A DNA stretch of 14,799 nucleotides from Shewanellaceae bacterium UBA2521 (GCA_002341165.1 DDNL01000009.1:4370-19168); one strand, 5' to 3'; numbered from the stretch's first letter, positions 486 through 14,365 are shown. The notes: a model not told the origin generated them from the letters alone. Translations and numbers: made by a program.

Positions 486-1343
486 TTAACCCTCTTTTTT
501 GGTCAATAAAAATGTATAAAAGCGTTGTGCTTCATTTAAACTCGCGATGCCAAAACCACCGAGGAGTGCATGCGAATCGATCACAAAAATCTTTTTCTGC
601 TTGCCTGCAGGCGTTGCTTTAAGTGTTGGAATTTTATGAAAAATAGATTGAGCTTCTTGTTTGGTTTTATAAGATCTATTCGTCACAACGATCACATTGG
701 GTTGCATATTCAAGATCGCTTCATGCGATATCGGCTTATATTCGTTTAAGTGTGCAGCTACATTTATGCCACCAGCCAGCTCTATGATGCGATGCATGGA
801 CGTGTTCTTACCTGCAGCTCTCAGTTTTCCTTGACTATGTTTGAGTAAAAATAACACCTTTAATTTTTTATTTTGGTGCATCTGCTGTTGCAAAAGTCGG
901 TGTTCTTGTGCTCTGACTTTCTGAATTAAAATCCCTGCTTCTTTTGGCTTGCGAGCAATTTTTGCAATAGCTTCAATGCGGTGAATCAGCTGATCGATTG
1001 AATTCCCCGAAGGATACTGCACAACATGAACTCCTACTTTTTTTAATTGTCGTAGTGTATCTTCATTACCCATAGCGCTAGAGCCTAGAAGGTGGGTTGG
1101 TCTAAGTGACAATACACCTTCAGTGGATAACATCCTATGGTATCCAACATCAGGTAGCGGATTTTTTGGCTGCTGACTTGTCGTATCTACACCTACAAGA
1201 GTACTTTTGGCATCTAATGCATAAAGAATGTCTGTGATTGCAGATCCTGCACTCACTATCCGTACATTAGCGTTCGTTTGTGTAGCTCCATCATGACTAT
1301 ATGCAATCATGAGTCCCCAGAATAAAAAAATAAAATGTTTCAT
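486..1343 (-). CDS. hmuT: Periplasmic haem/iron-binding protein of ABC transporter (HmuT-like, PF01497-type)
   Basis: 285 aa with signal peptide; NVRIVSAGSAITDILYALDAKSTLVGVDTTSQQP..., LRPTHLLGS, LNMQPNVIVVTNRSY. Directly upstream of the FecCD permease. Confidence 0.88.
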   Translation of the reverse strand: MKHFIFLFWGLMIAYSHDGATQTNANVRIVSAGSAITDILYALDAKSTLVGVDTTSQQPKNPLPDVGYHRMLSTEGVLSLRPTHLLGSSAMGNEDTLRQLKKVGVHVVQYPSGNSIDQLIHRIEAIAKIARKPKEAGILIQKVRAQEHRLLQQQMHQNKKLKVLFLLKHSQGKLRAAGKNTSMHRIIELAGGINVAAHLNEYKPISHEAILNMQPNVIVVTNRSYKTKQEAQSIFHKIPTLKATPAGKQKKIFVIDSHALLGGFGIASLNEAQRFYTFLLTKKEG

Positions 1344-2087: not shown

Positions 2088-2148
2088 AGGATTCTTTTTA
2101 ATATAAATAGTCTTTGTTACTTATACTCCATTTTTGAGATTAATTTTT

Positions 2149-4440
2149 ATGATGTTTAAAAAAAATAACCTTGCAATCCTAGTAGGATTTACTTTTTGTA
2201 CACCAAAGCTCTTTGCTCAGGAAGTTCAGCAGTTAGATACTGCCCATATTCAAGCTGAACATGTTGAAGAAGAGGATGTTATTGCGCCTCAAAGCCTTGT
2301 GACATCGGACGCTATTGATCGTGATTTGATACAAGATAGTGTAGATCTCTTTAAACATGATTCTGGTGTTATCATTACAGAAGGATCACGAGGTGGTATT
2401 GCCTCTATTCAAGTTCGTGGTCTTGGTCAGGATCGAGTGAAGGTCATTATGGATGGACAGTCACAATCAACTTTTACTGTGAAGGGTGGTTCTGTCCCTT
2501 ATATTGATTCAAGTATGCAGCTTTCTGATCCTGAATTTATTAAACAAGCTAAAGCCATCAAGGGTGCGCAGTCGAGTCGTTATGGTTCTGGAGCTATGGC
2601 CGGTGTTGTTAAAATTGATACCAAAGATCCCGAAGACTTAACGAAAGGTAAACCTTTCGGTGGATACCTTAAATCTGGCTATCGATCCAAAGATGCATCC
2701 TTTAAGCAAACACTAGGGTTGGCGACAGAACATGAATCTTTTAGAAGTTTATTGATGCTATCTTATTTACAAGGTGAAGAATTACAGCGTTCAAGTGATT
2801 TCATCTATCAATCAAATGATACAAAGTATTTAGAAAAAAAGAACCTAAATATCCTAGCTAAAATGGCTTACCGTCTAAATGATAGCCATGATCTTAAAAC
2901 CTATTATCTTTCATCACATGGTGATAATGAATCTGACTTAATCCACACAACGAAAAAAGACTACCATTCTGACGACCAAAACAGAAGATACCAGATAGGT
3001 TTAAGTCACGATTGGAATCAAGACTTAACGGTGGCAGACCATATCAAAACACAAGTGACATGGTCAGAGAAAAAGAATCAACAAAAGACAAGCTGGCTTG
3101 AACTTGGATCTCAAGCTCAAGCTCAATCTCCACATGGGCATGTTCATGGGCATGGTGCAGGTGATCATGCACATGGTACAGCCGGTCATGCACATGGGCA
3201 TGTTCATGCACATGGTACAGGCGATCATGCACATGGTACAGCCGGTCATGCACATGGTGCAGGTGGTCATGCACATGGTGCGAATCAAGCAAAAACAGAT
3301 GTAAAAGATAAGTCTAAGCTTAAGGATTATCGCTATAAATCAACCCACCTTTCTATAAAAATCGATGCGGACAAGAAGAACGACGTTTTTGATACGCATT
3401 ATGGTGTAAGTTTTGATACCATCAAGAATGCGAATGATAATACCGAGTATACGACTGTTGACGGCAAAAGGTCTCAAAGGAATATTTTTTATACACCAGA
3501 AGTTAGCACAAACCTTTATGCGGGATACGTTTCAACGGATATTAAATTGTTCGAAGAACAGCTTATCGTGAAGCCATCGATAAGGTATGACTATGTTGGT
3601 ATCAAGCCCCAGAGAGCATCTTTATCAGCAGCAATCAACAAGAAAACGCCTGATTATACATTTTCGCATGTGAGTAAAGGGCTGGCTTTAGAGTGGTTGC
3701 CGACACAACAACACAAGCTTGTTTTATCTGTCAAGGAAGGTTTTAGAACTCCATCTTATCACGATTTATTTTTCCAATGGGAAAACCCGGCATATCAATA
3801 TGCAGTGGTACCTAGTGCTGATTTAAAAGAAGAGACCGCGATCAATTACGGTATAGATTATACCTATAACTCTTTGCAGTCTCGCACGTCGTTAAGGTTA
3901 TTCTACAGTGATTACGATGATTTTATTGATACAAATTCAACAAAAGAAGATGGTATATCTATACAACGTAATACCAATATTGCTAAAGCAACCATTAAAG
4001 GTATTGAGTTTTCTCATGTTGTTTATTGGCAAAGTGACTTAGCTACAGCAGAAGGATTTTCAACAGGTTTCTCTGCTCAATACTACAAAGGTAAAGATCA
4101 GCACGGAAATCGTCTCAGCAGCGTTTCGCCTTGGTCAATGAATTTAAATCTGAGCTATGATGGCGTAGGCAAGATGTGGGGTACAGGCCTTAAAACAACT
4201 TATACAGCGAAGTCAAGCAGTGTTAGTAAGAATAGCATTGAGATTCCAAGCGTAAAGATGATGGACTTTACCCTTTATTATAAGCCTATCGAGCGCATAA
4301 AATTGACGGCTGGAGTCTTCAATATTTTAGATCAAGAGGTTTACAAATGGACAGAAGTCAAAGATGCAAGTAAGCCTTTGACAGATAGAATGAAGCAAGC
4401 AGGGCGTAACTACGGTCTTTCTATTGCTTACCAATTTTAA
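2149..4440 (+). CDS. TonB-dependent outer-membrane receptor (haem/hemoprotein or ZnuD-like zinc/haem type) with His-rich insert
   Basis: Plug domain SIQVRGLGQDRVKVIMDGQSQS...IKGAQSSRYGSGAMAGVVKIDTKDP; barrel motif FRTPSYHDLFFQWENP; C-terminal ...YGLSIAYQF ending in aromatic F. Start could be 2149 or 2152. Confidence 0.9.
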   Translation: MMFKKNNLAILVGFTFCTPKLFAQEVQQLDTAHIQAEHVEEEDVIAPQSLVTSDAIDRDLIQDSVDLFKHDSGVIITEGSRGGIASIQVRGLGQDRVKVIMDGQSQSTFTVKGGSVPYIDSSMQLSDPEFIKQAKAIKGAQSSRYGSGAMAGVVKIDTKDPEDLTKGKPFGGYLKSGYRSKDASFKQTLGLATEHESFRSLLMLSYLQGEELQRSSDFIYQSNDTKYLEKKNLNILAKMAYRLNDSHDLKTYYLSSHGDNESDLIHTTKKDYHSDDQNRRYQIGLSHDWNQDLTVADHIKTQVTWSEKKNQQKTSWLELGSQAQAQSPHGHVHGHGAGDHAHGTAGHAHGHVHAHGTGDHAHGTAGHAHGAGGHAHGANQAKTDVKDKSKLKDYRYKSTHLSIKIDADKKNDVFDTHYGVSFDTIKNANDNTEYTTVDGKRSQRNIFYTPEVSTNLYAGYVSTDIKLFEEQLIVKPSIRYDYVGIKPQRASLSAAINKKTPDYTFSHVSKGLALEWLPTQQHKLVLSVKEGFRTPSYHDLFFQWENPAYQYAVVPSADLKEETAINYGIDYTYNSLQSRTSLRLFYSDYDDFIDTNSTKEDGISIQRNTNIAKATIKGIEFSHVVYWQSDLATAEGFSTGFSAQYYKGKDQHGNRLSSVSPWSMNLNLSYDGVGKMWGTGLKTTYTAKSSSVSKNSIEIPSVKMMDFTLYYKPIERIKLTAGVFNILDQEVYKWTEVKDASKPLTDRMKQAGRNYGLSIAYQF
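3131..3285 (+). repeat. In-frame tandem repeat encoding a His/Gly-rich loop
   Basis: 60-bp unit 3131-3190 repeated at 3191-3250 with 4 mismatches, plus shorter related units to ~3285. Encodes HGHVHGHGAGDHAHGTAGHAHGHVHAHGTGDHAHGTAGHAHGAGGHAHG. Confidence 0.9.
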
Positions 4441-5365: not shown

Positions 5366-6333
5366 TTATGCTCTGTTCAGCCAGATAGTTTTGAAACGCT
5401 TTTGCTAAATATTGAGCACCTTGGTCGCTATGAAACAGCAAAGGCTCCGTCGGCTTACGCAGGTTGATGGCCATTCTTAAAGCTTCGAGCACCAAGTTGG
5501 TGTTTTGGGTAGATTAAATACGCCAGCCAATGACTCGGCGAGAATGCAAATCCGTCACCACCGCCAAATAGCACCAACCTTCTGCGGTTCGCAAGTAAGT
5601 GACATCGCCAGCCCAAGCTTGATTGACAGACTCAGGGTTAAAGCGTTGATTCAACTCTTTTTGAGCTTCTGTTTTGGGTTTAATGAGCGATAAGGGCTTT
5701 TTCGGCGCTGTTTGACCACCAAACCCAGCTTGTTCATGAGACTTCTGGTCTTATAACGGCCAATTTTAAAGCCCTCACGGCGCAAATGCTGCATCATTTG
5801 CCTTGAGCCTAAGCTTTGACGGCTGGCTTTAAAAAGCGCCTTACAACGCGATTCCAGTACTTTTTGGGCAACATAAGGCTGCGATTCTGGCTTCTTGAAC
5901 CAATCGTAAAAGGCGCTGCGACTTACTTTCAAGACCTGACACATCAGCAAAACCGGGTAAACCGCCTGATAAGTCTCAATGAAGCGGTACTTTACTTCAT
6001 TTCTTTGGCAAAAAATGCGCTGGCTTTTTTTAAGATTTCATGCTCTTGCTGCAAACGCTTATTTTCACGGCGTAAGCGCATTAATTCAGCGCGTTCTTCG
6101 GGTCTTAAAGCTCCTTCAGCCTGGTTTTTCTCGTACTTGACCTTCCAATTAGAAAGGATTTTTGCGGTCACGCCCACAGTTTCAGAAGCCTCTTTTAGGC
6201 TATAATTATGCTCTAAAACCAGTCTGACTGCTTTGTCTTTAAATTCCTGAGTATAGGTCCTATATTTGCGTTTTTCTGTCATGATCACCTCGGATTGAGT
6301 GTTTATTGTCCACCATTTAAATGTCCGGTTCAA
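5366..6333 (-). pseudogene. Decayed IS3-family transposase (orfA largely intact, orfB frameshifted and 3'-truncated)
   Basis: OrfA 5992-6300 (MTEKRKYRTYTQEFKDKAVRLVLEHNYSLKEASETVGV...RLRRENKRLQQEHEILKKASAFF). OrfB pieces in different frames: VSRSAFYDWFKKPES..., [54 protein letters not shown], and LVLEALRMAINLRKPTEPLLFHSDQGAQYLAKAFQNYLAEQSITP, then homology ends. Confidence 0.88.
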
Positions 6334-6435
6334 TTAGACCATAATAGTCTTATATTTGCGTTTTTCTGTCATGATTACCTCGGGTTGAGTTTTTATTATC
6401 CACTATTTAAATGTCCGGTTCAATTAGACCATAAT
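6261..6435. repeat. 90-bp-period tandem duplication of the IS3-like right end
   Basis: tatatttgcgtttttctgtcatgatcacctcggattgag...ccatttaaatgtccggttcaattagaccataata at 6261-6345 repeats at 6351-6435 with 5 mismatches. Confidence 0.9.
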
Positions 6436-6444
6436 ATAGCCCAA

Positions 6445-6587: not shown

Positions 6588-7682
6588 ATGGTGAGTTTTC
6601 TCCGTATTTATAGTGTTTTGGGATTAATGGTAGTAACTTCGGTATTTGCTGAAACTAAAGAGCAGCAAACGAAGCGAACTCTATTACCTATGCACCAATA
6701 TTTATCTCAAGATGAATTATGGTTATCAGCTAAAGATGACATGCATGATAATGATATTAAAACCGTTGCAGTTTATTTCAATGGGCGCACTACACAGGAT
6801 GTCACTCAAGGTCAAGTTGATACGTTTCAATATGCCATTGAAAATAAAATCCAAAATACGGGTTTTACTGTTCGAACATGTATTGAATGTACCAAACAAC
6901 GCGTCCATTTAAGTAAGAAAAAAATAAAATACAAAACCGGTATAGAAAACAACCAAGAACTGCGTTCTTTAGGTAAAAATATTAACGTCGATGCTTTTTT
7001 AGTCTGGCGTTTATCTAAAAACTTCGATGGCTATGATTTAAATATGAAGATTATTAATGCACACACAAATAAGGTTGTGTGGATTCGTAGTTTTCAAGCA
7101 GATACAGCAGCTAAAGAAATCAAAGAGATTAAATATCCTTCACAATGGGGAGTTGCTATTGGTCACTTAGGTTTAAAAGGTGAAGCAAATATTCCTTTCA
7201 ATCCAAATATTGATGGTAGTGGTCAGTGGAAAGATCGTTTTAGCACGGTTCGCGATATCAGTATTCGTTACTACACGCGTCACAAGCCAGGTGAAAATCT
7301 TCATTACGCTATTATCGGTAACTTTTTTATGAGCGTTCCAGAAGCAGACCAAACTGCTAAGGACTTGAAAGGTCTGGGCAAAGCTGACTTTTCTGTACAA
7401 GGCGTTGGTCTTGAAGGACGTGTTTTATACAACTTTTCTCAGGACACTTTTCTAAATCCAAGTGCCTATGTTGGTGTTGGTATTTCCAGTGTAAATGAAA
7501 GACAAAAAATAAGTGCACGAACAGGGTTTGAATTTGCCTTCATGGAAAATGCGTTTGTTGATGTTGGCCTCATTTATATTGACCCTGTTGAGTACGAGTT
7601 CAAAGAGAACAATTGGTCGCAAGATAAAGCAAAATTTGCTGACTCAATCGGTACAGATTTTACCATTGGTATAAGGTTTTAA
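6588..7682 (+). CDS. Putative outer-membrane protein: signal peptide, CsgG/FlgO-like N-terminal domain, C-terminal beta-barrel-like region
   Basis: MVSFLRIYSVLGLMVVTSVFAE signal; KTVAVYFNGR...LGKNINVDAFLVWRLSKNFDGYDLNMKIINAHTNKVVWIRSF resembles FlgO/CsgG-type domains; C-terminal alternating strands NPSAYVGVGISSVNERQKISARTGFEF...FTIGIRF ending in F. Confidence 0.6.
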   Translation: MVSFLRIYSVLGLMVVTSVFAETKEQQTKRTLLPMHQYLSQDELWLSAKDDMHDNDIKTVAVYFNGRTTQDVTQGQVDTFQYAIENKIQNTGFTVRTCIECTKQRVHLSKKKIKYKTGIENNQELRSLGKNINVDAFLVWRLSKNFDGYDLNMKIINAHTNKVVWIRSFQADTAAKEIKEIKYPSQWGVAIGHLGLKGEANIPFNPNIDGSGQWKDRFSTVRDISIRYYTRHKPGENLHYAIIGNFFMSVPEADQTAKDLKGLGKADFSVQGVGLEGRVLYNFSQDTFLNPSAYVGVGISSVNERQKISARTGFEFAFMENAFVDVGLIYIDPVEYEFKENNWSQDKAKFADSIGTDFTIGIRF

Positions 7683-7689
7683 GGTGAAG

Positions 7690-8193
7690 ATGATGAAATT
7701 AAACACACTTTTAATTATGACGATGGTCGCTTTAACCGCTACAGCGGCGTCGGCTGAAGAAGCGAGTTCAACGTCTGAAAAACAGCAGAAAAAATCAAAG
7801 ATGATGAATGTGAATGTGAAAGGTCAAGGCAACATGTATAACTCGGATGTTGATTTTGATTTAAACGATCCAAACGTCATCGTTACGATTGAAACAGATG
7901 AAACAGATGAAACAGAAGACAGTATGTTCGATGAGAAAAAAGCGAATAAATTGCATAGTAAAGCTCAAAAGTTAGCGCGAACGGGTCGTTACCAAGAAGC
8001 CTTAACTTTGCTTAAAGAAGCTGAGACTTTAACAGAAAACCCAGCAAAAATTTTATCGTTGCAAGGGAGCGCTCTATACAAATTAAATCGAATTGATAGT
8101 GCGAAAGATGCGTGGAATGAATCACTACGACACGACTCAAAACAGCCTGAAATTAAACGGATGTTGTCTTGGTTAGAGAAGGAGAAGTCATAA
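7690..8193 (+). CDS. Exported TPR-containing small protein
   Basis: Signal peptide MMKLNTLLIMTMVALTATAASAEE; C-terminal TPR-like KLHSKAQKLARTGRYQEALTLLKEAETLTENPAKILSLQGSALYKLNRIDSAKDAWNESLRHD. 7 nt after the previous gene. Confidence 0.65.
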   Translation: MMKLNTLLIMTMVALTATAASAEEASSTSEKQQKKSKMMNVNVKGQGNMYNSDVDFDLNDPNVIVTIETDETDETEDSMFDEKKANKLHSKAQKLARTGRYQEALTLLKEAETLTENPAKILSLQGSALYKLNRIDSAKDAWNESLRHDSKQPEIKRMLSWLEKEKS

Positions 8194-9842
8194 TGAGACA
8201 GGTTAAACATATAATTTTATGGGTATTGCTCGTATCTTGTAGCGCTATGGCACAAGACAATACATCGTTAAAACTAAAACAAATGTCGTTTTCGGCAGAG
8301 CTAGAAAGTCGTTTAAACAGCGATGTTGAGCGAGTTATTGGAACCAATAAGCACATTTTATCGGTGCGCTCTGAATTTGTTTATGATGCAAAAACTGCAT
8401 CAAACAAGACTGATTCGATCGATATGGATATATCGGATGCACCTGATTTACCTGGATTATCGGGTATGCCGGCTATCGATGAGCCGAAACCAGCTAAAAA
8501 AGCAGTAAAAGAGCCAATGATTCGTTCGTTTAATACGAAATTAATTTTGGACCAGAGTGTGACCGCTGAACAAGAACAGTTATTACGTGGTTTGTTACTT
8601 CAGAAATTAGAGTACGACCCTATGCGTGGTGACCAATTTAGCATAACGCGTGCAGAACTTGATACAGCATCAGCTGTTGATGAGATTCAATCCTTATGGG
8701 ATGAGTACTGGCCTTTAATAGCTGCCTTAGCTGCTTTATTACTATTGTTACTTATTTGGTTCATCGTACGTCGTTCATCGAAAAAGAAAGATGCTGATGT
8801 TGCACCGGTAACATTAGATAAACCAACTTCGCCAGAAGCATTGCTTGATATGAAAAAAGGTGAGTTAAAAGCGATTCGTGAAAAGCTGGTTAAACAAAGC
8901 TTAAGTGAGCCTGAAAAAACAAAAGAAGTGATGAGCAGCTTGAGTTTAAATGAGCAGAACTTGCCTATGTTGTCGTCAACATACCAAGAGCTTGGACGTG
9001 CTTTATTTACATCGATGTATCCAACTTTGGTACCCAATATTCCAAGTTATTTGAAGTATTTAGAAGAAAATCCAACAGATTACGATGGTTTAGTACGTCA
9101 CTTAACCGATTTAAATCATTTGCTTTCAGATGCGCAATCATCGGATCAATTTGAAAATAAAGTGAAGCCTTTTGGATTCTTAGAGCGCATGACGGATAAT
9201 CAAATCCGTTGGGTACTCGATGACGAATCAGATCGTGTGAAAGCGGTTGTATTATGTCAGTTAAGCACAGACAAAGCGTCTAAATTGCTAACAACTTTTA
9301 ATGCCCAGACGCAAACACAATTAGCCATTGAGATTGCTCAGTTTAAATCGATGCCGATGACAACCTTTAATGAAGTTGCTGCATCATTAGCTGTAAAAGC
9401 ACGTTCAGTGCCAGATTTTAATACGATTGCTGTTGATGGCACACAATTACTTATTAAGATGTTAGATAGTATGAATTTATCGCAAGCAGAAGCTTTGGTT
9501 TCTCAGTTGAAATCGAGCTCGCCAGATATCTATCTAGATCTTCGACAAGTGTATTACATGTTTGAAGACATCTTGAGAACACCTGCGAATGTATTGAGCA
9601 ATCACTTACGTACGATGGAACCAAAAACGTTAGCCTTAGCCCTTTCAGAATTTACGGAAGAGCAAGTGGGTAAAGTATTATCGTCATTCCCTGAGCGTTT
9701 TGTTGCGATGTTGAAGCAAGAAATTCAGCAAGTAACGGATTTAGATAAAGGCAATGTTGAATCTGCTAAGCAGCAAGTCACCTTAGTTATACGTGAAGCG
9801 TTGAAAAACAAGCAGTTCAGTATGAATGATTTAGAGGTGTAA
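8193..9842 (+). CDS. Membrane-anchored FliF-FliG-like fusion protein (putative non-flagellar rotor)
   Basis: Start ATG overlaps the previous stop (TAATG). Signal/TM N-term; FliF-like periplasmic segment FSAELESRLNSDVERVIGTNKHILSVRSEFVYD...FNTKLILDQSVTAEQEQLLRGLLLQKLEYDPMRGDQFSITRAEL; TM YWPLIAALAALLLLLLIWFIVRR; FliG-like C-term VDGTQLLIKMLDSMNLSQAEALVSQLKSSSPDIYLDLRQVYYMFEDILRTPANVLSNHLRTMEPKTLALALSEF...SFPERFVAMLKQEI...NVESAKQQVTLVIREAL. Confidence 0.8.
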   Translation: MRQVKHIILWVLLVSCSAMAQDNTSLKLKQMSFSAELESRLNSDVERVIGTNKHILSVRSEFVYDAKTASNKTDSIDMDISDAPDLPGLSGMPAIDEPKPAKKAVKEPMIRSFNTKLILDQSVTAEQEQLLRGLLLQKLEYDPMRGDQFSITRAELDTASAVDEIQSLWDEYWPLIAALAALLLLLLIWFIVRRSSKKKDADVAPVTLDKPTSPEALLDMKKGELKAIREKLVKQSLSEPEKTKEVMSSLSLNEQNLPMLSSTYQELGRALFTSMYPTLVPNIPSYLKYLEENPTDYDGLVRHLTDLNHLLSDAQSSDQFENKVKPFGFLERMTDNQIRWVLDDESDRVKAVVLCQLSTDKASKLLTTFNAQTQTQLAIEIAQFKSMPMTTFNEVAASLAVKARSVPDFNTIAVDGTQLLIKMLDSMNLSQAEALVSQLKSSSPDIYLDLRQVYYMFEDILRTPANVLSNHLRTMEPKTLALALSEFTEEQVGKVLSSFPERFVAMLKQEIQQVTDLDKGNVESAKQQVTLVIREALKNKQFSMNDLEV

Positions 9843-9844
9843 GC

Positions 9845-10627
9845 ATGATCTCCTTTAGTAACATATTTGGATTCTTATTAGCGATTGGACTCATATGTGG
9901 TTCAATCATGATGTCGACAGACAACTATTTGTTGTTTGTCAGCATCTCAAGTTTGATTATCGTTGTGGGTGGCTCTTTTGCAGCTTCTCTGGTTGGTTAC
10001 TCATTTCCGTTGGTATTCAGCGCCTTAAAAGGTATTTTACAAAACCTTATGATTGAAGATAACGACATGAAAACCAAGCACATGTCAATTCGACGTATGA
10101 CCGAGTGGAACAACACGTTTCATTCAGGCGGTATCACTGAGTTAGAAAACTCATTAACAGAAAAAGAAAAGAAAGATTCTTTTATCAAGCTAGGTATCGA
10201 TTTAATCGGTACAGGCTACAAAGGTGAAGAGTTACAAGCACTATTGGAAGAAAGCAATGAAAGCCAATCCATGCAAGACATGCGTCATGCTGAAGTGTTA
10301 AATACTTTAGCTAACTTCGCACCGGGTTTTGGTATGGTTGGTACGTTAATCGGTTTAATCGTGATGCTAGATAATTTAAGTGGCGATATGGCGGTACTAG
10401 GAAAAGGCTTAGCGGTTGCTCTTCTTACAACCTTTTACGGTGTTATTTCAGCGCAATTATTTTTTAAACCAGCTTCTATGCGTGTACAACGTCGTGTTGA
10501 GATGGAAGCACATCGTCGAGAAATGCAAATCAGAGCTTTTATGATGATGACGACTAAACGTCCTTCTCTTCACGTTCAAGATCATATGAATGGTTATTTA
10601 CCCTTTAATAAGCGCTTGGAAGATTAA
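9845..10627 (+). CDS. MotA/PomA-like stator (proton channel) protein
   Basis: 260 aa; SSLIIVVGGSFAASLVGYSF, SFIKLGIDLIGTGYKGEELQALLEE, NTLANFAPGFGMVGTLIGLIVMLDNL...LGKGLAVALLTTFYGVISAQLFFKPA. Confidence 0.9.
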   Translation: MISFSNIFGFLLAIGLICGSIMMSTDNYLLFVSISSLIIVVGGSFAASLVGYSFPLVFSALKGILQNLMIEDNDMKTKHMSIRRMTEWNNTFHSGGITELENSLTEKEKKDSFIKLGIDLIGTGYKGEELQALLEESNESQSMQDMRHAEVLNTLANFAPGFGMVGTLIGLIVMLDNLSGDMAVLGKGLAVALLTTFYGVISAQLFFKPASMRVQRRVEMEAHRREMQIRAFMMMTTKRPSLHVQDHMNGYLPFNKRLED

Positions 10628-10629
10628 TC

Positions 10630-11274
10630 ATGGCTAAGAGCAGAAAGAAAGTTGCACTAGAAGAGAGTAATAGTTGGTTACTGACGTACAGTGATGTTGT
10701 CACTTTATTGGTCGCTTTCTTTGTACTTTTAATTGCAACGTCTCAAGTAGATGAAGGTAAGTTGGAAGATGTTAAGCAAGGGTTATCAATAGTGTCGGAT
10801 TCAGAATCACAAACACCGATGCAAGATTTAAGTGAGCAAGTAGAAACGATCATTAAAGAGCAAGAGTTAGCATCAATTAAAGTTAAAAAAGTCATTGATG
10901 GTATCAAAATCGAACTTGATAGTGAAAACTTGTATGAATCTGGATCAGCATCTTTAAAGCCCGAAGGAAAAAAGATTCTCGTTGAGTTTACCAAGGCTAT
11001 TAATAGTGTTGATTTGGATCATCGTAACATTGTGATTGAAGGTCACAGTGACGATGTGCCAATCCGTAACGCTGAATTTCATAACAACTGGGAATTATCC
11101 TCAGCTCGCGCTATTGAAGTGACGTTACATCTTATTGACTTAGGTGTTGACAAATCTAAGCTACGAGCAGTTTCTTATGCTGATTCTCAGCCTAGAGCAA
11201 ATAAGGAATTACCAATCGCGGAGCAGAGACAACAAAATCGACGCGTTGTTATTTACATAAAACGAGCGATATAA
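10630..11274 (+). CDS. MotB/PomB-like stator protein with OmpA-like peptidoglycan-binding domain
   Basis: SNSWLLTYSDVVTLLVAFFVLLIATS (TM with conserved Asp) and OmpA/MotB core IVIEGHSDDVPIRNAEFHNNWELSSARAIEVTLHLIDLGVDKSKLRAVSYADSQP...RQQNRRVVIYI. Confidence 0.92.
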   Translation: MAKSRKKVALEESNSWLLTYSDVVTLLVAFFVLLIATSQVDEGKLEDVKQGLSIVSDSESQTPMQDLSEQVETIIKEQELASIKVKKVIDGIKIELDSENLYESGSASLKPEGKKILVEFTKAINSVDLDHRNIVIEGHSDDVPIRNAEFHNNWELSSARAIEVTLHLIDLGVDKSKLRAVSYADSQPRANKELPIAEQRQQNRRVVIYIKRAI

Positions 11275-11298: not shown

Positions 11299-11322
11299 GT
11301 ACGAAAACATTCGTTTTCGTAC
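11299..11322. terminator. Perfect hairpin downstream of the mot-like operon, possible weak terminator
   Basis: GTACGAAAAC-ATTC-GTTTTCGTAC, 24 nt after the motB-like stop; no clear T-tract. Confidence 0.45.
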
Positions 11323-11363: not shown

Positions 11364-11716
11364 GGCTCCGTTGCAAAAATTTACTTCGTTTTGCTTAAAT
11401 CATTGCCATCTTTACTAAAAAGAGAATTGCCTTTCTATGAGACGCACTTCTCCTAAGATGCCTTGATTTCGAAGCCATACATTCATCTGTTTCTTTCGAA
11501 ACATTCGCATCACTTCAAATCCTTTTAAGGTTGCAAAGGCTGTCTTCATGGATTGAAAACCTCGGGTAGGCTTAATCATTCTCTTTAGCTTACCATGATC
11601 CGACTCAATCCTATTATTCAAATATTTGACGTGCCTGTGCTGAATGATTTGACGACAGACCCCCTCTTTTTTAGAGCTGATAGAGCAGGTGCATAAGCTC
11701 GATCTTTATCGGATTC
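11364..11716 (-). pseudogene. IS6-family transposase remnant with one terminal inverted repeat
   Basis: End sequence GGCTCCGTTGCAAAAAT at 11364 resembles IS6/IS26-type termini. Minus strand encodes SDKDRAYAPALSALKKRG (one frame), then after a frameshift near 11665 VCRQIIQHRHVKYLNNRIESDHGKLKRMIKPTRGFQSMKTAFATLKGFEVMRMFRKKQ. N-terminal half missing. Confidence 0.88.
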
Positions 11717-11875
11717 AAAACGCGGATTTAATCGCTTAGCTTGGTAGATAGAAGGGTGTGCATCAATAATACCTTGAGCAATCTCTTTCACTTTAAAGGG
11801 TTGATAGGGATGTTGCTTTAAAATTTGGAAAATTTGATCGGTTTGACTTAACTTTGACATATCAAGCTTATGCAT
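11717..11875 (-). pseudogene. N-terminal fragment of a gene with a winged-helix/HARE-HTH-like domain, disrupted by the IS6 remnant
   Basis: MHKLDMSKLSQTDQIFQILKQHPYQPFKVKEIAQGIIDAHPSIYQAKRLNPRF then switches to transposase sequence. Confidence 0.45.
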
Positions 11876-12001
11876 CAAAATGAAAAGGCTTCTGATTATA
11901 CAACTGATATAAATAAGAAAAAAGTCACACCTTAAATTTGATAGATATTTTCAAATAGTTGCCGATATAGCTTTCATGCTATCCAAGAATAAAATTTTTT
12001 T

Positions 12002-14365
12002 ATGTTAAATACTAAGAATTATATATATTTTATTTTTCTTTTTATATTAGGCTGTGCAGACAGTTCTGAATTTAATATTATTGAAGAAATGCAAGGACAA
12101 CCTGCTCAAGGAGGACAACCTGATCAAGGAGGACAACCTGATCAAGGAGGACAACCTGACCAAGGTGGACAACCTGATCAAGGAGGACAACCTGACCAAG
12201 GTGGACAACCTGACCAAGGAGGACAACCTGACCAAGGAGGACAACCTGACCAAGGAGGACAACCTGACCAAGGAGGGCAACCTGACCAAGGAGGGCAACC
12301 TGACCAAGGAGGGCAACCTGACCAAGGAGGAAGCAACTCGAACCCTCAAAAATTTATTTTTTTCAACCAAAACAATCTTGAAAGTGATACCACAGGAGCT
12401 TTAAGTGGTACCGTGCACTTTGCTCAAAGCACAATCATGCCATCTAAAAATAAAATAAAAGATGATATCCAACCGCACCTTGTTTCTCAGCGTAAAGCTT
12501 TAGTTCTATTTAAGTCTCCAGATTTAGCAGAAGATAAAAACTTAAAAATGAGTATCTATGATAAAAATAATACACTTATTTATCAAAGTAATATGAACCA
12601 TCCCTCGAAATTACCTGCTATTGAGGGGGAATCTATAGAACCTATTTCTTTCAAAAATTTTGAACCTAATCAAACTCTAAATCTCAATACTCAAGCCCAA
12701 TTAAATGATCTTAAAGAAGATCTTTCGGGACAAAGATTAAGCTATTTCTTTAATACATTTGACTTTATTCATGTTCAAACCCAAGATGGAATACATATCG
12801 ATGACTTTCATCTACCTCTTCTCGCTAAAGGTTCTGAAAAGCATATACGTTTTTCATCTAGAGCTGGCTATGATTCAACCATTTACTTTTCAGGCTTAAA
12901 AAGATCCCTTAAAACGAATTTTGTCTTCGATTTTAAGTTCCAGAATCAAACTTGGTACATGAAAAGTCATATGAATCGTATAAAATACGGTTATTTTTGG
13001 AGTGCCCCCTTACCTAAGCAACATGTAAAACCTGGTATAAGTATTCGATTTACGCAAAATGGAGAAAATGGTCTGCTCAGTGCTCATGACATCAAAGTAG
13101 GTCCTGAAATCGAGTTACTTTTACACACCATTGACTTAGGGTTTCTGACTCCTTATCGAGATGAGTTTGACTTTCAAAAAAAAGATAAAAATCATATTGA
13201 GTATTATCAAACTATTCCCATAACAAAACTCATTGTGTCACGATATGAACCTCAACACTTTAAGACTGTAGGCTTACCCGATGGAACAGTCTACAACAGT
13301 AAAAGTGCAACCGACGGCGGTGTCTATACAGGTGATATGCGAAAAATTGGAAAAATTCTTATATCACATGGTATTAATTTAGCTAATTATGGTCTGACTT
13401 CATCTCATCCAACGAGTGAAAGTCCGCACAAATATATGGCTAATCAGATTACAATTCATAACTCTCAAGGTATCTATACAGATAAAGACTCAAAAGCATC
13501 AAAAAAAGTGATTCATGGCTTATCTGGAGGCAATGGTATGCTTACCTTGTCCGATTCTGAAGGTAATGAATTCAGTCATGAAATGGGGCATGCACTAAGT
13601 TTAGGACATTACCCAGGTGGCTTTGAAAGAAGTGTGCATCGCCCAGCACATATGATCAACTCAACTTGGGGGTGGGATAGTGTTCGTAATGAATTTACAC
13701 CTAATTTCGAGCATTATCCTACGAATAAACCTACCAAATATGATGGAGGCGCGAAAGATAAAGATAAAGGGAAGACTGTACAGCCTTTTCATGGACATAG
13801 TTTTGGCAAAGACTCTATGGGAGATGGAAGTCCACTCTATTCGAATCATTACACTTTATTTACTCCCTATACCATGAATAAAATGCAAAAATTTTTGGAG
13901 CGAACACCTCGCTTTGATAAGAATTCATCCACGGGCTTTTCTGTATGGGATGCTAATAAACAGGAATATAGAGAGGCTGCTAATAACGTATCTTCTTCAC
14001 GTAGAAAAGACTTCGGTGTACCTGTAGTCACTTTAGTGGGATATTATGATCCAACTAATACCATTAAATCCTTTGCCTATCCTGCTTTATACGGTAGCTA
14101 TGGTCATACTTATTATAGCTTCCCTAAATGGTTCAATAGCAAATGTCAGCTCACCGTCAAAAACGCTCGTAGAAAAAAAGTAACATTCTTCTTAAATGAC
14201 CGTGTCATTTTAAGAAAAAATATGAATAAATATCATGTCAATATTGCGCAATCATTTAAACCTACGAGTTACGATATAAAATGTCATGGTAAATTTGTTT
14301 TGCCTTCGTTTGCTATTAAACCTAAGAAATTTAATTTAAAAACCCATATTGTAGAAAGCCCTTAA
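12002..14365 (+). CDS. StcE/TagA-like zinc metalloprotease (peptidase M66 type), predicted lipoprotein
   Basis: Lipobox-like FILGC at residues 14-18. HExxHxxGxxH zinc motif in GNEFSHEMGHALSLGHYPGGFERSVHRPAHMINSTWGWDSVRNEFTPNF, closely resembling the StcE active-site segment. Confidence 0.88.
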   Translation: MLNTKNYIYFIFLFILGCADSSEFNIIEEMQGQPAQGGQPDQGGQPDQGGQPDQGGQPDQGGQPDQGGQPDQGGQPDQGGQPDQGGQPDQGGQPDQGGQPDQGGQPDQGGSNSNPQKFIFFNQNNLESDTTGALSGTVHFAQSTIMPSKNKIKDDIQPHLVSQRKALVLFKSPDLAEDKNLKMSIYDKNNTLIYQSNMNHPSKLPAIEGESIEPISFKNFEPNQTLNLNTQAQLNDLKEDLSGQRLSYFFNTFDFIHVQTQDGIHIDDFHLPLLAKGSEKHIRFSSRAGYDSTIYFSGLKRSLKTNFVFDFKFQNQTWYMKSHMNRIKYGYFWSAPLPKQHVKPGISIRFTQNGENGLLSAHDIKVGPEIELLLHTIDLGFLTPYRDEFDFQKKDKNHIEYYQTIPITKLIVSRYEPQHFKTVGLPDGTVYNSKSATDGGVYTGDMRKIGKILISHGINLANYGLTSSHPTSESPHKYMANQITIHNSQGIYTDKDSKASKKVIHGLSGGNGMLTLSDSEGNEFSHEMGHALSLGHYPGGFERSVHRPAHMINSTWGWDSVRNEFTPNFEHYPTNKPTKYDGGAKDKDKGKTVQPFHGHSFGKDSMGDGSPLYSNHYTLFTPYTMNKMQKFLERTPRFDKNSSTGFSVWDANKQEYREAANNVSSSRRKDFGVPVVTLVGYYDPTNTIKSFAYPALYGSYGHTYYSFPKWFNSKCQLTVKNARRKKVTFFLNDRVILRKNMNKYHVNIAQSFKPTSYDIKCHGKFVLPSFAIKPKKFNLKTHIVESP
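12110..12325 (+). repeat. Twelve tandem 18-bp repeats encoding (GGQPDQ)12
   Basis: GGAGGACAACCTGAYCAA-type units counted directly; in frame with the metalloprotease. Confidence 0.95.

Follow-up and report, generated by a model that had tools for sequence, protein, structure and literature searches.

The stretch of DNA analysed here (the window) comprises 14,799 nt of Shewanellaceae bacterium UBA2521 (GCA_002341165.1 DDNL01000009.1:4370-19168) and is matched by a 121-kb Tara Oceans marine metagenome contig; all coordinates are window positions. Among its genes are five on the + strand (6588-11274), tightly packed as an operon, which specify an exported FlgO-like protein (X), a periplasmic tetratricopeptide repeat (TPR) protein, a fusion in which the ring-building motif RBM3 of FliF is joined through a transmembrane (TM) helix to FliG, and the stator subunits MotA and MotB (Table 1). 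The intra-operon junctions are overlaps or gaps of no more than 7 nt, the ATG of the fusion gene at 8193 overlapping the TAA stop of the TPR gene by one base and 2-nt gaps separating the fusion, MotA and MotB genes. A terminator-like hairpin downstream of motB likely marks the operon end. An initial annotation of the sequence had singled out the fusion, with the correct coordinates for its open reading frame (ORF; 8193-9842, 549 aa), and the motifs quoted from it (ELESRLNSDVERVIG, ...DPMRGDQFSI, MFED and LALAL) are all present. We consider it rather probable that the operon specifies a self-contained rotor–stator machine, derived from the flagellum and devoid of a filament, which acts on the cell envelope.

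Table 1. Features of the five-gene operon and of the fusion protein (a slash marks the predicted signal peptide cleavage site)
Feature	Position (nt)	Strand	Residues and remarks
Gene 1, X	6588..7682	+	364 aa from ATG 6588; AAGAGG ribosome-binding site; start in the ORF list, TTG 6558
Gene 2, periplasmic TPR protein	7690..8193	+	167 aa
Gene 3, FliF(RBM3)–TM–FliG fusion	8193..9842	+	549 aa
Signal-peptide-like N-terminus of fusion	8193..8252	+	aa 1-20; MRQVKHIILWVLLVSCSAMA/QD, cleavage motif AMA/QD
Periplasmic FliF-RBM3-like domain of fusion	8280..8651	+	RBM3a aa 30-63 (helix and strand); insert aa 64-108; RBM3b aa 109-153 (strand-helix-strand)
LPGL(S/P)G motif, family-specific	8448-8465	+	aa 86-91, in insert
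RGD motif, FliF-type	8625-8633	+	aa 145-147, in RBM3b
TM helix and basic cluster of fusion	8712..8789	+	helix aa 174-192; RRSSKKK aa 193-199
Cytoplasmic helical region at FliG_N position	8832..9167	+	aa 214-325; placed by fold alignment
FliG middle domain	9198..9413	+	aa 336-407; Pfam FliG_M PF14841, E 1.2e-16, 61 bits (cut-off 25)
FliG C-terminal torque domain	9504..9809	+	aa 438-539; Pfam FliG_C PF01706, E 4.8e-18, 65.8 bits (cut-off 23.3)
Gene 4, flagellar-type MotA/PomA-like stator A subunit	9845..10627	+	260 aa
Gene 5, MotB-like stator B subunit	10630..11274	+	214 aa
Terminator-like hairpin	11299..11322	+	10-bp stem, 25 nt past motB stop; T-tail weak; from a consensus scan only

The FliG character of the C-terminal part of the fusion (~335 aa), claimed in the initial annotation, is borne out by profile searches for the middle and torque domains, both of which score well above their Pfam cut-offs in the window protein and are each matched by 50 of 50 family members. 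Comparison with solved FliG structures by phmmer gave E-values down to 5e-15. An AlphaFold2 model of the fusion based on 22 relatives has a mean pLDDT of 77.7 and consists of helices alone between aa 214 and the C-terminus; in Foldseek it aligns over 316–324 columns of full-length FliG (Aquifex, Salmonella), so that the segment linking the TM helix to FliG_M holds the place of FliG_N, and its FliG_C fold matches 1qc7 and 8ucs_H with a root-mean-square deviation of 1.5–1.8 A. A profile of aa 198-335 run against PDB found as its best match residues 5-62 of Salmonella FliG, at a non-significant E-value of 0.26, and the window protein's own Pfam FliG_N match falls on the M domain, not on the N region; the relative P0049 has a FliG_N match (3.5e-8) at the FliG_N position. 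On the modelled fold, aa 214-325 may be called a FliG N-like domain.

The hinge in FliG_C reads YYMFED (aa 454-459). In an alignment with T. maritima FliG, the EHPQ of the FliM-binding motif is replaced by ESDR, and across the family only E345 of the EHPQR motif is conserved. This loss fits the absence of fliM and fliN: the window contains no fliE, fliH, fliI, fliM, fliN, flh or flg axial genes. Neither does the window protein reach the cut-off of the NCBIfam FliG equivalog TIGR00207 (74 bits against 226.7). The designation "rotor/switch" protein given to the fusion at first therefore stands for the rotor, with its torque domain, but not for the switch. Likewise, the non-flagellar setting that had been proposed agrees with the want of export, axial and switch genes in the window, but has to be qualified in that the first gene of the operon is FlgO-like.

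On the N-terminal side of the TM helix, homology of the periplasmic domain to the C-terminal periplasmic region of FliF (RBM3) is shown, by four independent tests, at the level of both profile and fold. A profile built from aa 1-325 of nine family members, searched against 1.84 billion representative proteins, matched about 100 proteins of the fusion's own architecture and, in addition, many proteins of about 515 aa at residues ~235-500 with E-values of 1e-12 to 1e-17. The four of these that were scanned are true FliF, with PF01514 and PF08345, and ten shorter non-fusion matches carry PF08345, so that all 14 scanned non-fusion matches are positive for PF08345; when the profile is restricted to the periplasmic part, it finds this same stretch of FliF. 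Among the family members themselves PF08345 is matched directly by 14 of 50 (best 7e-8), P0055 scoring above the cut-off. The resemblance to FliF seen in the initial annotation thus holds for family profiles and fold, though not for a direct Pfam match of the window protein.

The periplasmic part is about 150 aa long and is modelled as a single RBM with the topology helix-strand-[insert]-strand-helix-strand, which is that of a ring-building motif whose strands 1 and 2 are separated by an insertion, as they are in FliF RBM3. When the isolated domain was compared with PDB by Foldseek, the best 17 matches were all FliF RBM3 or S-ring structures, including those of Vibrio (E ~1e-4, TM-score 0.45–0.52), the Vibrio FliFG S-ring 8z4d being among them; PrgK and SpoIIIAG ranked well below FliF. 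A profile of the domain searched against PDB sequences returned FliF only (best E 0.0046), with RBM3a and RBM3b aligned and the RGD in common. ELESRLNSDVERVIG and DPMRGDQFSI fall within the conserved RBM3a and RBM3b elements. The insert consists of 45 aa, is Pro-rich and predicted to be disordered (pLDDT <50), and is conserved only in its LPGLP-type motif; true FliF possesses the RGD and lacks LPGLP. The domains lying on either side of the TM helix are accordingly a FliF RBM3 fold outside and a FliG fold inside. PF01514, which covers the RBM1-RBM2 region of YscJ/FliF, gave no Pfam match at E<=1 in the window protein, and by model and alignment the fusion also lacks the beta-collar insertion between RBM3 strands 1 and 2. 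Of the MS-ring anchor that was said to be merged with FliG, it is RBM3 that is found; RBM1/2 and the beta-collar are absent, and where FliF has TM1 there is what looks like a cleavable signal peptide.

The fusion is exported N-terminus first, on a predicted signal peptide, and anchored by a single TM helix. Its export signal, also noted in the initial annotation, was read from the n/h/AxA pattern of MRQVKHIILWVLLVSCSAMA/QD, a pattern common to the Vibrio relatives. The TM helix reported there was found as well (Table 1), and the AlphaFold2 model has a helix at aa 161-196. Since the TM helix is followed by the basic cluster RRSSKKK, the C-terminal two thirds of the protein, the FliG part, are expected from the positive-inside rule to be cytoplasmic. 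This topology, the identity of the next two genes as motA and motB, and the retention of FliG-contact residues agree with the early proposal that FliG is placed beneath the membrane beside a MotAB stator.

MotA contains a MotA_ExbB domain (PF01618, 7e-24) and is of the flagellar type by score, the NCBIfam models for PomA, MotP and MotA giving 1e-35 to 1e-20 against ~1e-3 for ExbB and TolQ. Its best PDB matches are MotA 8ucs (3e-28), a stator bound to FliG, and PomA (1e-23). MotB possesses MotB_plug (1e-14; plug aa 11-53) and OmpA (1e-16; peptidoglycan-binding domain aa 102-200) domains; its best NCBIfam model is MotD (2e-43, under the cut-off), its PDB match to MotB has an E-value of 3e-26, and its channel aspartate, D22, is invariant in 21 of 21 sequences. 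Neither MotA nor MotB of the window reaches the NCBIfam equivalog cut-offs for flagellar stators. PADLOC was used to screen for the Zorya anti-phage system, which was rejected: ZorA scored 13.9 bits, ZorC and ZorD were not present, and the other three proteins of the operon had no match. The ZorB matches reflect the shared MotB family, not Zorya.

The rotor–stator interface was mapped by alignment to T. maritima FliG (1lkv) and to PomA, the known reference residues in E. coli being R90 and E98 of MotA and R281 and D288/D289 of FliG. On the FliG side, the R281-equivalent (502) is R in the window and K/R in 33 of 35 family members, and the D288/D289-equivalents (509/510) are Q and E in the window and acidic in 21/35 (509) and 24/35 (510). 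On the MotA side, the E98-equivalent (PomA E96; residue 101) is E in the window and in all 24 of 24 members, and the R90-equivalent (PomA R88; residue 93) is H in the window and R in 18 of 24. The equivalents of FliG K264 and R297 are not kept. The FliG acidic pair is lost in loci L036 and L039, the latter having lost the basic residue too, and both are without adjacent motAB. Judged by these alignments, the family as a whole retains, on both partners, the electrostatic pairs by which flagellar MotA and FliG generate torque. It is improbable, in our estimation, that the proteins form a regulator or sensor instead of a motor, in which a membrane-anchored FliG gates ion flow through MotAB or signals the state of the envelope with no mechanical output. 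A role of this kind would suit an operon with no recognisable rod, filament or adhesin and in which one charge pair of the window MotA and FliG is weakened (H93 and Q509); it accounts poorly for the conservation in the family of a full force-generating apparatus (torque interface, MotB plug, channel Asp and peptidoglycan anchor), and the constant exported TPR and outer-membrane-type partners suggest a structure that spans the envelope.

Of these partners, X has a signal peptide, a periplasmic FlgO-like domain, a CxEC motif (aa 98-101; nt 6879-6890) and a C-terminus ending in ...TIGIRF. Pfam FlgO is matched by 13 of the 21 members of the X family (best 1e-5; window X 0.04), all under the Pfam cut-off, and one of the 21 matches OMP_b-brl. 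In the family alignment C98 and C101 are nearly invariant and the terminal residue is aromatic, as in outer-membrane barrels; a search of PDB sequences with the X profile revealed no relatives. The fusion gene has a homolog of X next to it in Vibrionaceae, in Sericytochromatia and in loci from metagenomes. The TPR protein consists of a signal peptide (...TAASA/EE), an acidic low-complexity stretch and TPR repeats (Pfam TPR_2, 2e-8, plus other TPR families), is homologous to the product of the TPR gene in a cyanobacterial-type locus (L007; E 4e-12), and is encoded in nearly every related locus. Against PDB it gave generic TPR matches only, Hop TPR1 being the best, with no specific likeness to MotX, PflB or MotC.

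The closest relatives of the fusion (37–51% identity) are in Aliivibrio fischeri, A. finisterrensis, A. logei, Vibrio penaeicida, V. nigripulchritudo and a few other vibrios, and the distant ones (~25–28%) in Sericytochromatia/Tanganyikabacteria and one cyanobacterial metagenome-assembled genome; GTDB genomes hold no copy closer than 51% identity to the window protein. A word-indexed homolog search gave 21 Vibrio-type and 12 Sericytochromatia-type relatives, and a 50-sequence profile the Vibrio set only. In an exhaustive profile search, the fusion architecture was present in 99 of the 150 best representatives of 50%-identity clusters, at lengths of 429–777 aa. In a sample of 44 loci from genomes and metagenomes, every contig of sufficient extent has the same partners beside the fusion, for the most part arranged as X–TPR–fusion–MotA–MotB. 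This five-gene order is found in Aliivibrio, V. penaeicida, V. nigripulchritudo and Sericytochromatia, as well as in about 20 metagenome loci whose fusions are 23–36% identical to the window protein, and so recurs across distant lineages, which answers the question of conserved synteny raised in the initial annotation.

Several relatives differ in their composition. A cyanobacterial-type locus (L040 11509-14553) has two stator pairs after fusion–TPR–X, in the order MotA-MotB-MotB-MotA, one nearer the Vibrio type and one nearer the Sericytochromatia type; two stators may serve a single machine here. In L039 (2053-7827) a 789-aa fusion lies between a 430-aa weak paralogue, which precedes it, and a 498-aa protein with Sel1 repeats, a family of repeats to which Vibrio MotX belongs. 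Sericytochromatia-type operons (L005 12023-14794 and 16944-18480; L019, L020) specify a much longer TPR protein (480–923 aa) and have two extra paralogous genes of ~250 aa without a Pfam match, downstream of X (in L005, of MotA), which may be lineage-specific parts of the machine. The 498-aa relative P0108 carries an N-terminal LysM peptidoglycan-binding domain ahead of an RBM3-like domain and FliG_M; in a rotor-type protein such a tie to peptidoglycan would be hard to square with free rotation.

All five genes are under purifying selection, the ratio of non-synonymous to synonymous substitution rates (dN/dS) being 0.02–0.16 among three Aliivibrio species. We give very little credence to the view that the operon is a decaying, functionless remnant of a second flagellar system. 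Insertion sequence (IS) remnants directly upstream of it and a patchy distribution among Vibrio species might be so explained, but not these dN/dS values, the intact frames, the same gene order across phyla or an architecture shared by some 100 divergent clusters.

The operon is also present in Vibrio fischeri ES114, where by gene order it comprises VF_A0183-0187, of which only VF_A0186/0187 are named in papers; the latter are on chromosome II, the same replicon as locus L015. These two genes are motA2 and motB2, mutants of which have normal motility in soft agar and which are not activated by FlrA (PMC3948606). Since the mutants swim normally and the genes lie outside FlrA control, the operon appears independent of the flagellum, and its output in V. 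fischeri is not swimming. The same data bear on the idea that the proteins are accessories of the ordinary flagellum, that is, alternative rotor and stator subunits which insert into the basal body or assemble beside it under particular conditions. Every recognisable part comes from a flagellar family, the Vibrionaceae hosts are flagellated, and one biofilm model of V. fischeri has motA2B2 going down in company with fliA and cheV2. We nevertheless hold this to be improbable, for, in addition to the mutant phenotypes and the position outside the FlrA regulon, the fusion has neither RBM1/2 nor the beta-collar nor the FliM-binding motif, each of which it would need to fit an MS/C-ring, and the five genes travel as a unit without flagellar neighbours in very distant lineages.

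For the favoured machine, a filament-less rotor–stator device acting on the envelope, the following mechanism may be envisaged. RBM3 domains would oligomerise into an MS-ring-like ring in the inner membrane, and MotB would anchor stators of the MotA5B2 type to the peptidoglycan. Ion flow by way of MotB D22 would turn MotA against the FliG_C torque helix and so drive the ring, or its subunits. Work would then go outward through the periplasmic part; as LPGLP lies in a disordered loop and the TPR gene is adjacent, a peptide–TPR contact is suggested, and binding of the LPGLP peptide of the flexible insert by the TPR protein is a candidate route. By analogy with MotX, PflA/B or MotC/MotK in flagellar motors, the TPR protein could alternatively be a scaffold of the stator. 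The final target would be the FlgO-like outer-membrane protein, and the output would be work done mechanically on the envelope or the surface of the cell instead of swimming. In its most specific form, a ring of fusions turned by its own MotAB, with the TPR protein as adaptor to a FlgO-like barrel, the operon would be an autonomous, filament-less, ion-driven rotary motor, a proposal that we advance tentatively and hold with less confidence than the general one.

A beta insertion stabilises the RBM3 ring in FliF and SpoIIIAG, and the FliF ring has about 33–34 subunits. The corresponding insert of the fusion is short and disordered, and there is no FliM/FliN scaffold for a large FliG ring. MotAB might then drive single or loosely clustered fusions, the rotating MotA pentamer pushing them sideways or in cycles, as in a rack and pinion or a Ton/Tol-like transducer that moves or pulls the TPR and outer-membrane partners; it is established that ExbBD, TolQR, AglRQS and GldLM power partners that are not rings (reviewed in PMC12505986). 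We think this plausible but unlikely, though less unlikely than a regulatory or an accessory flagellar role, given that the solved structures which resemble the periplasmic domain are all ring-forming RBMs, with FliF RBM3 rings the best, and that conservation within the domain is confined to the RBM3 elements and the FliF-type RGD.

Several points weigh against the view of the operon as a self-contained machine. In the window protein there is no direct Pfam match to PF08345 at E<=1, nor any FliF match in the NCBIfam scan. In the model, a short disordered insert occupies the place of the ring-stabilising beta insertion, so that a closed ring is not assured. The window sequences have His at the MotA R90 position and Gln at the FliG D288 position. 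Six Sericytochromatia-type loci (L016-L021) consist of fusion–TPR–X only, with no motAB in the available DNA, and the available DNA of L036 and L039 likewise has none. Sequence alone speaks for X, which is probably an outer-membrane beta-barrel, and for the hypothetical contact between the TPR protein and LPGLP; the formation of a ring, its rotation and its output are what we infer for the whole. Lastly, the behaviour of motA2B2, fliA and cheV2 in the biofilm model makes some link of motA2B2 to the motility regulon possible.

Compared with known systems, the window proteins are most akin to the flagellar rotor–stator core, with which they share the RBM3 fold and its RGD, the TM helix, the M and C domains of FliG (with an N-like region by fold), the torque charges and a flagellar-type stator. 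By curated cut-offs they are not equivalogs of FliG, FliF, MotA or MotB. They differ from that core in that the rotor is a single polypeptide in which a signal peptide replaces TM1 and RBM1/2, the beta-collar and EHPQR are missing, and in that genes for FliM/N, export gate, rod, hook and filament are not found near the window operon. ExbBD–TonB, TolQR–TolA, AglRQS–Glt, GldLM and ZorAB are similar in combining an ion-driven motor of the 5:2 type with envelope partners and, probably, in delivering energy to the outer envelope; the window MotA is set apart from these non-flagellar members of the MotAB family by its flagellar-type scores. We know of none among them with a FliG- or FliF-type partner. 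The pairing of FlgO-like and TPR proteins with a MotB-type stator recalls the motor scaffolds of Vibrio and Campylobacter (the FlgO/FlgP/FlgT H-ring; MotX, PflA/B, MotC/MotK), TPR proteins that hold stators being a recurring theme in flagellar motors. Unlike those, X shows a weak likeness to FlgO and has an extra C-terminal barrel-like half.

Natural and engineered FliF–FliG fusions are on record. That of the Chlamydiaceae (Bergeron 2016, PeerJ, PMC4768692) is similar in being, in a setting that lacks a flagellum, a shortened FliF-like periplasmic protein with a FliG-like domain on the cytoplasmic side of its TM helix. It is set apart by its published description: ~330 aa, an RBM2-like motif and one further RBM, an M-like part of FliG only, no SpoIIIAG-like RBM3, no MotAB and a link to the injectisome (PMC4768692), in contrast to the RBM3 alone, the N-like, M and C domains of FliG and the operon with MotAB, TPR and FlgO-like proteins found here. 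Engineered fusions of full-length FliF and FliG in Salmonella and Vibrio alginolyticus still assemble the MS-ring/S-ring (PMC10941966, PMC11481574); these are laboratory constructs inside a complete flagellum, whereas the window fusion is natural, trimmed and outside one. A search of the literature open without subscription found nothing on the window fusion family, on the operon or on VF_A0183-0185. The initial annotation had suggested that the family is undescribed; this holds only for the window family and operon within the searchable literature, for the Chlamydiaceae fusion (PMC4768692) and motA2B2 (PMC3948606) have been published.

The genes that flank the operon are unrelated to it: haem-uptake genes and IS remnants lie upstream and proteases (M66) downstream. 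Directly upstream are two tandem 90-nt units, 93% identical (6257-6436), which adjoin an ORF for a transposase fragment (5992-6288, minus strand; HTH_Tnp_1); further rve and HTH_21 fragments lie alongside in the sister contig L002. Repeats and fragments look like IS remnants and, on this sequence evidence, may be a sign that the operon belongs to a region that is mobile or was rearranged recently. In the haem-uptake-like cluster, which includes a Peripla_BP_2 protein (486-1343, minus strand) and a PNPOx-like protein (1602-2087), a TonB-dependent receptor (2134-4440) contains an internal His/Gly-rich repeat (HGHVHGHGAGDHAHGTAGHAHG...), with repeats at 3131-3281 in 21- and 60-nt tandem units, which may form a loop that binds metal or haem. 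Between the operon and the M66 gene, two small overlapping ORFs (11415-11878, minus strand; 54–86 aa) have no Pfam match and are conserved in identical sister contigs only. The M66 metalloprotease (StcE/TagA-like; 12002-14365) has a lipoprotein-like N-terminus and 13 tandem 18-nt units (12094-12331) that specify (QPDQGG)n; beyond its gene the longer contig L001 continues with an S41 peptidase and a MARTX toxin gene (>3900 aa; RtxA/Peptidase_C80). This M66/S41/MARTX neighbourhood resembles one of the virulence or colonisation type.

To our knowledge, the flagellum is the only setting in which FliG and the MS-ring protein work, Chlamydia holding an unexplained remnant. If the reading of the operon as a machine in its own right is true, it would be without precedent among non-flagellar machines in using the flagellar rotor itself, and would add a class to the envelope machines powered by MotAB. 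The torque-generating core could then exist as a module separate from export apparatus, axial structure and switch, and the operon bears both on the minimal set of parts for MotAB-driven rotation and on the relation of the rotor–stator pair to the export apparatus in flagellar evolution. The module could have descended from the flagellar motor by loss of parts, or it could be a surviving relative of the rotor–stator core from before the union with the type III export apparatus. V. fischeri ES114 is genetically tractable, motA2 and motB2 mutants of it exist, and it has a natural host in which a phenotype might be sought. The module is widespread, with about 100 divergent clusters from Vibrionaceae to Sericytochromatia, and it could bring to light a new route by which ion-motive energy is conveyed to the outer membrane.

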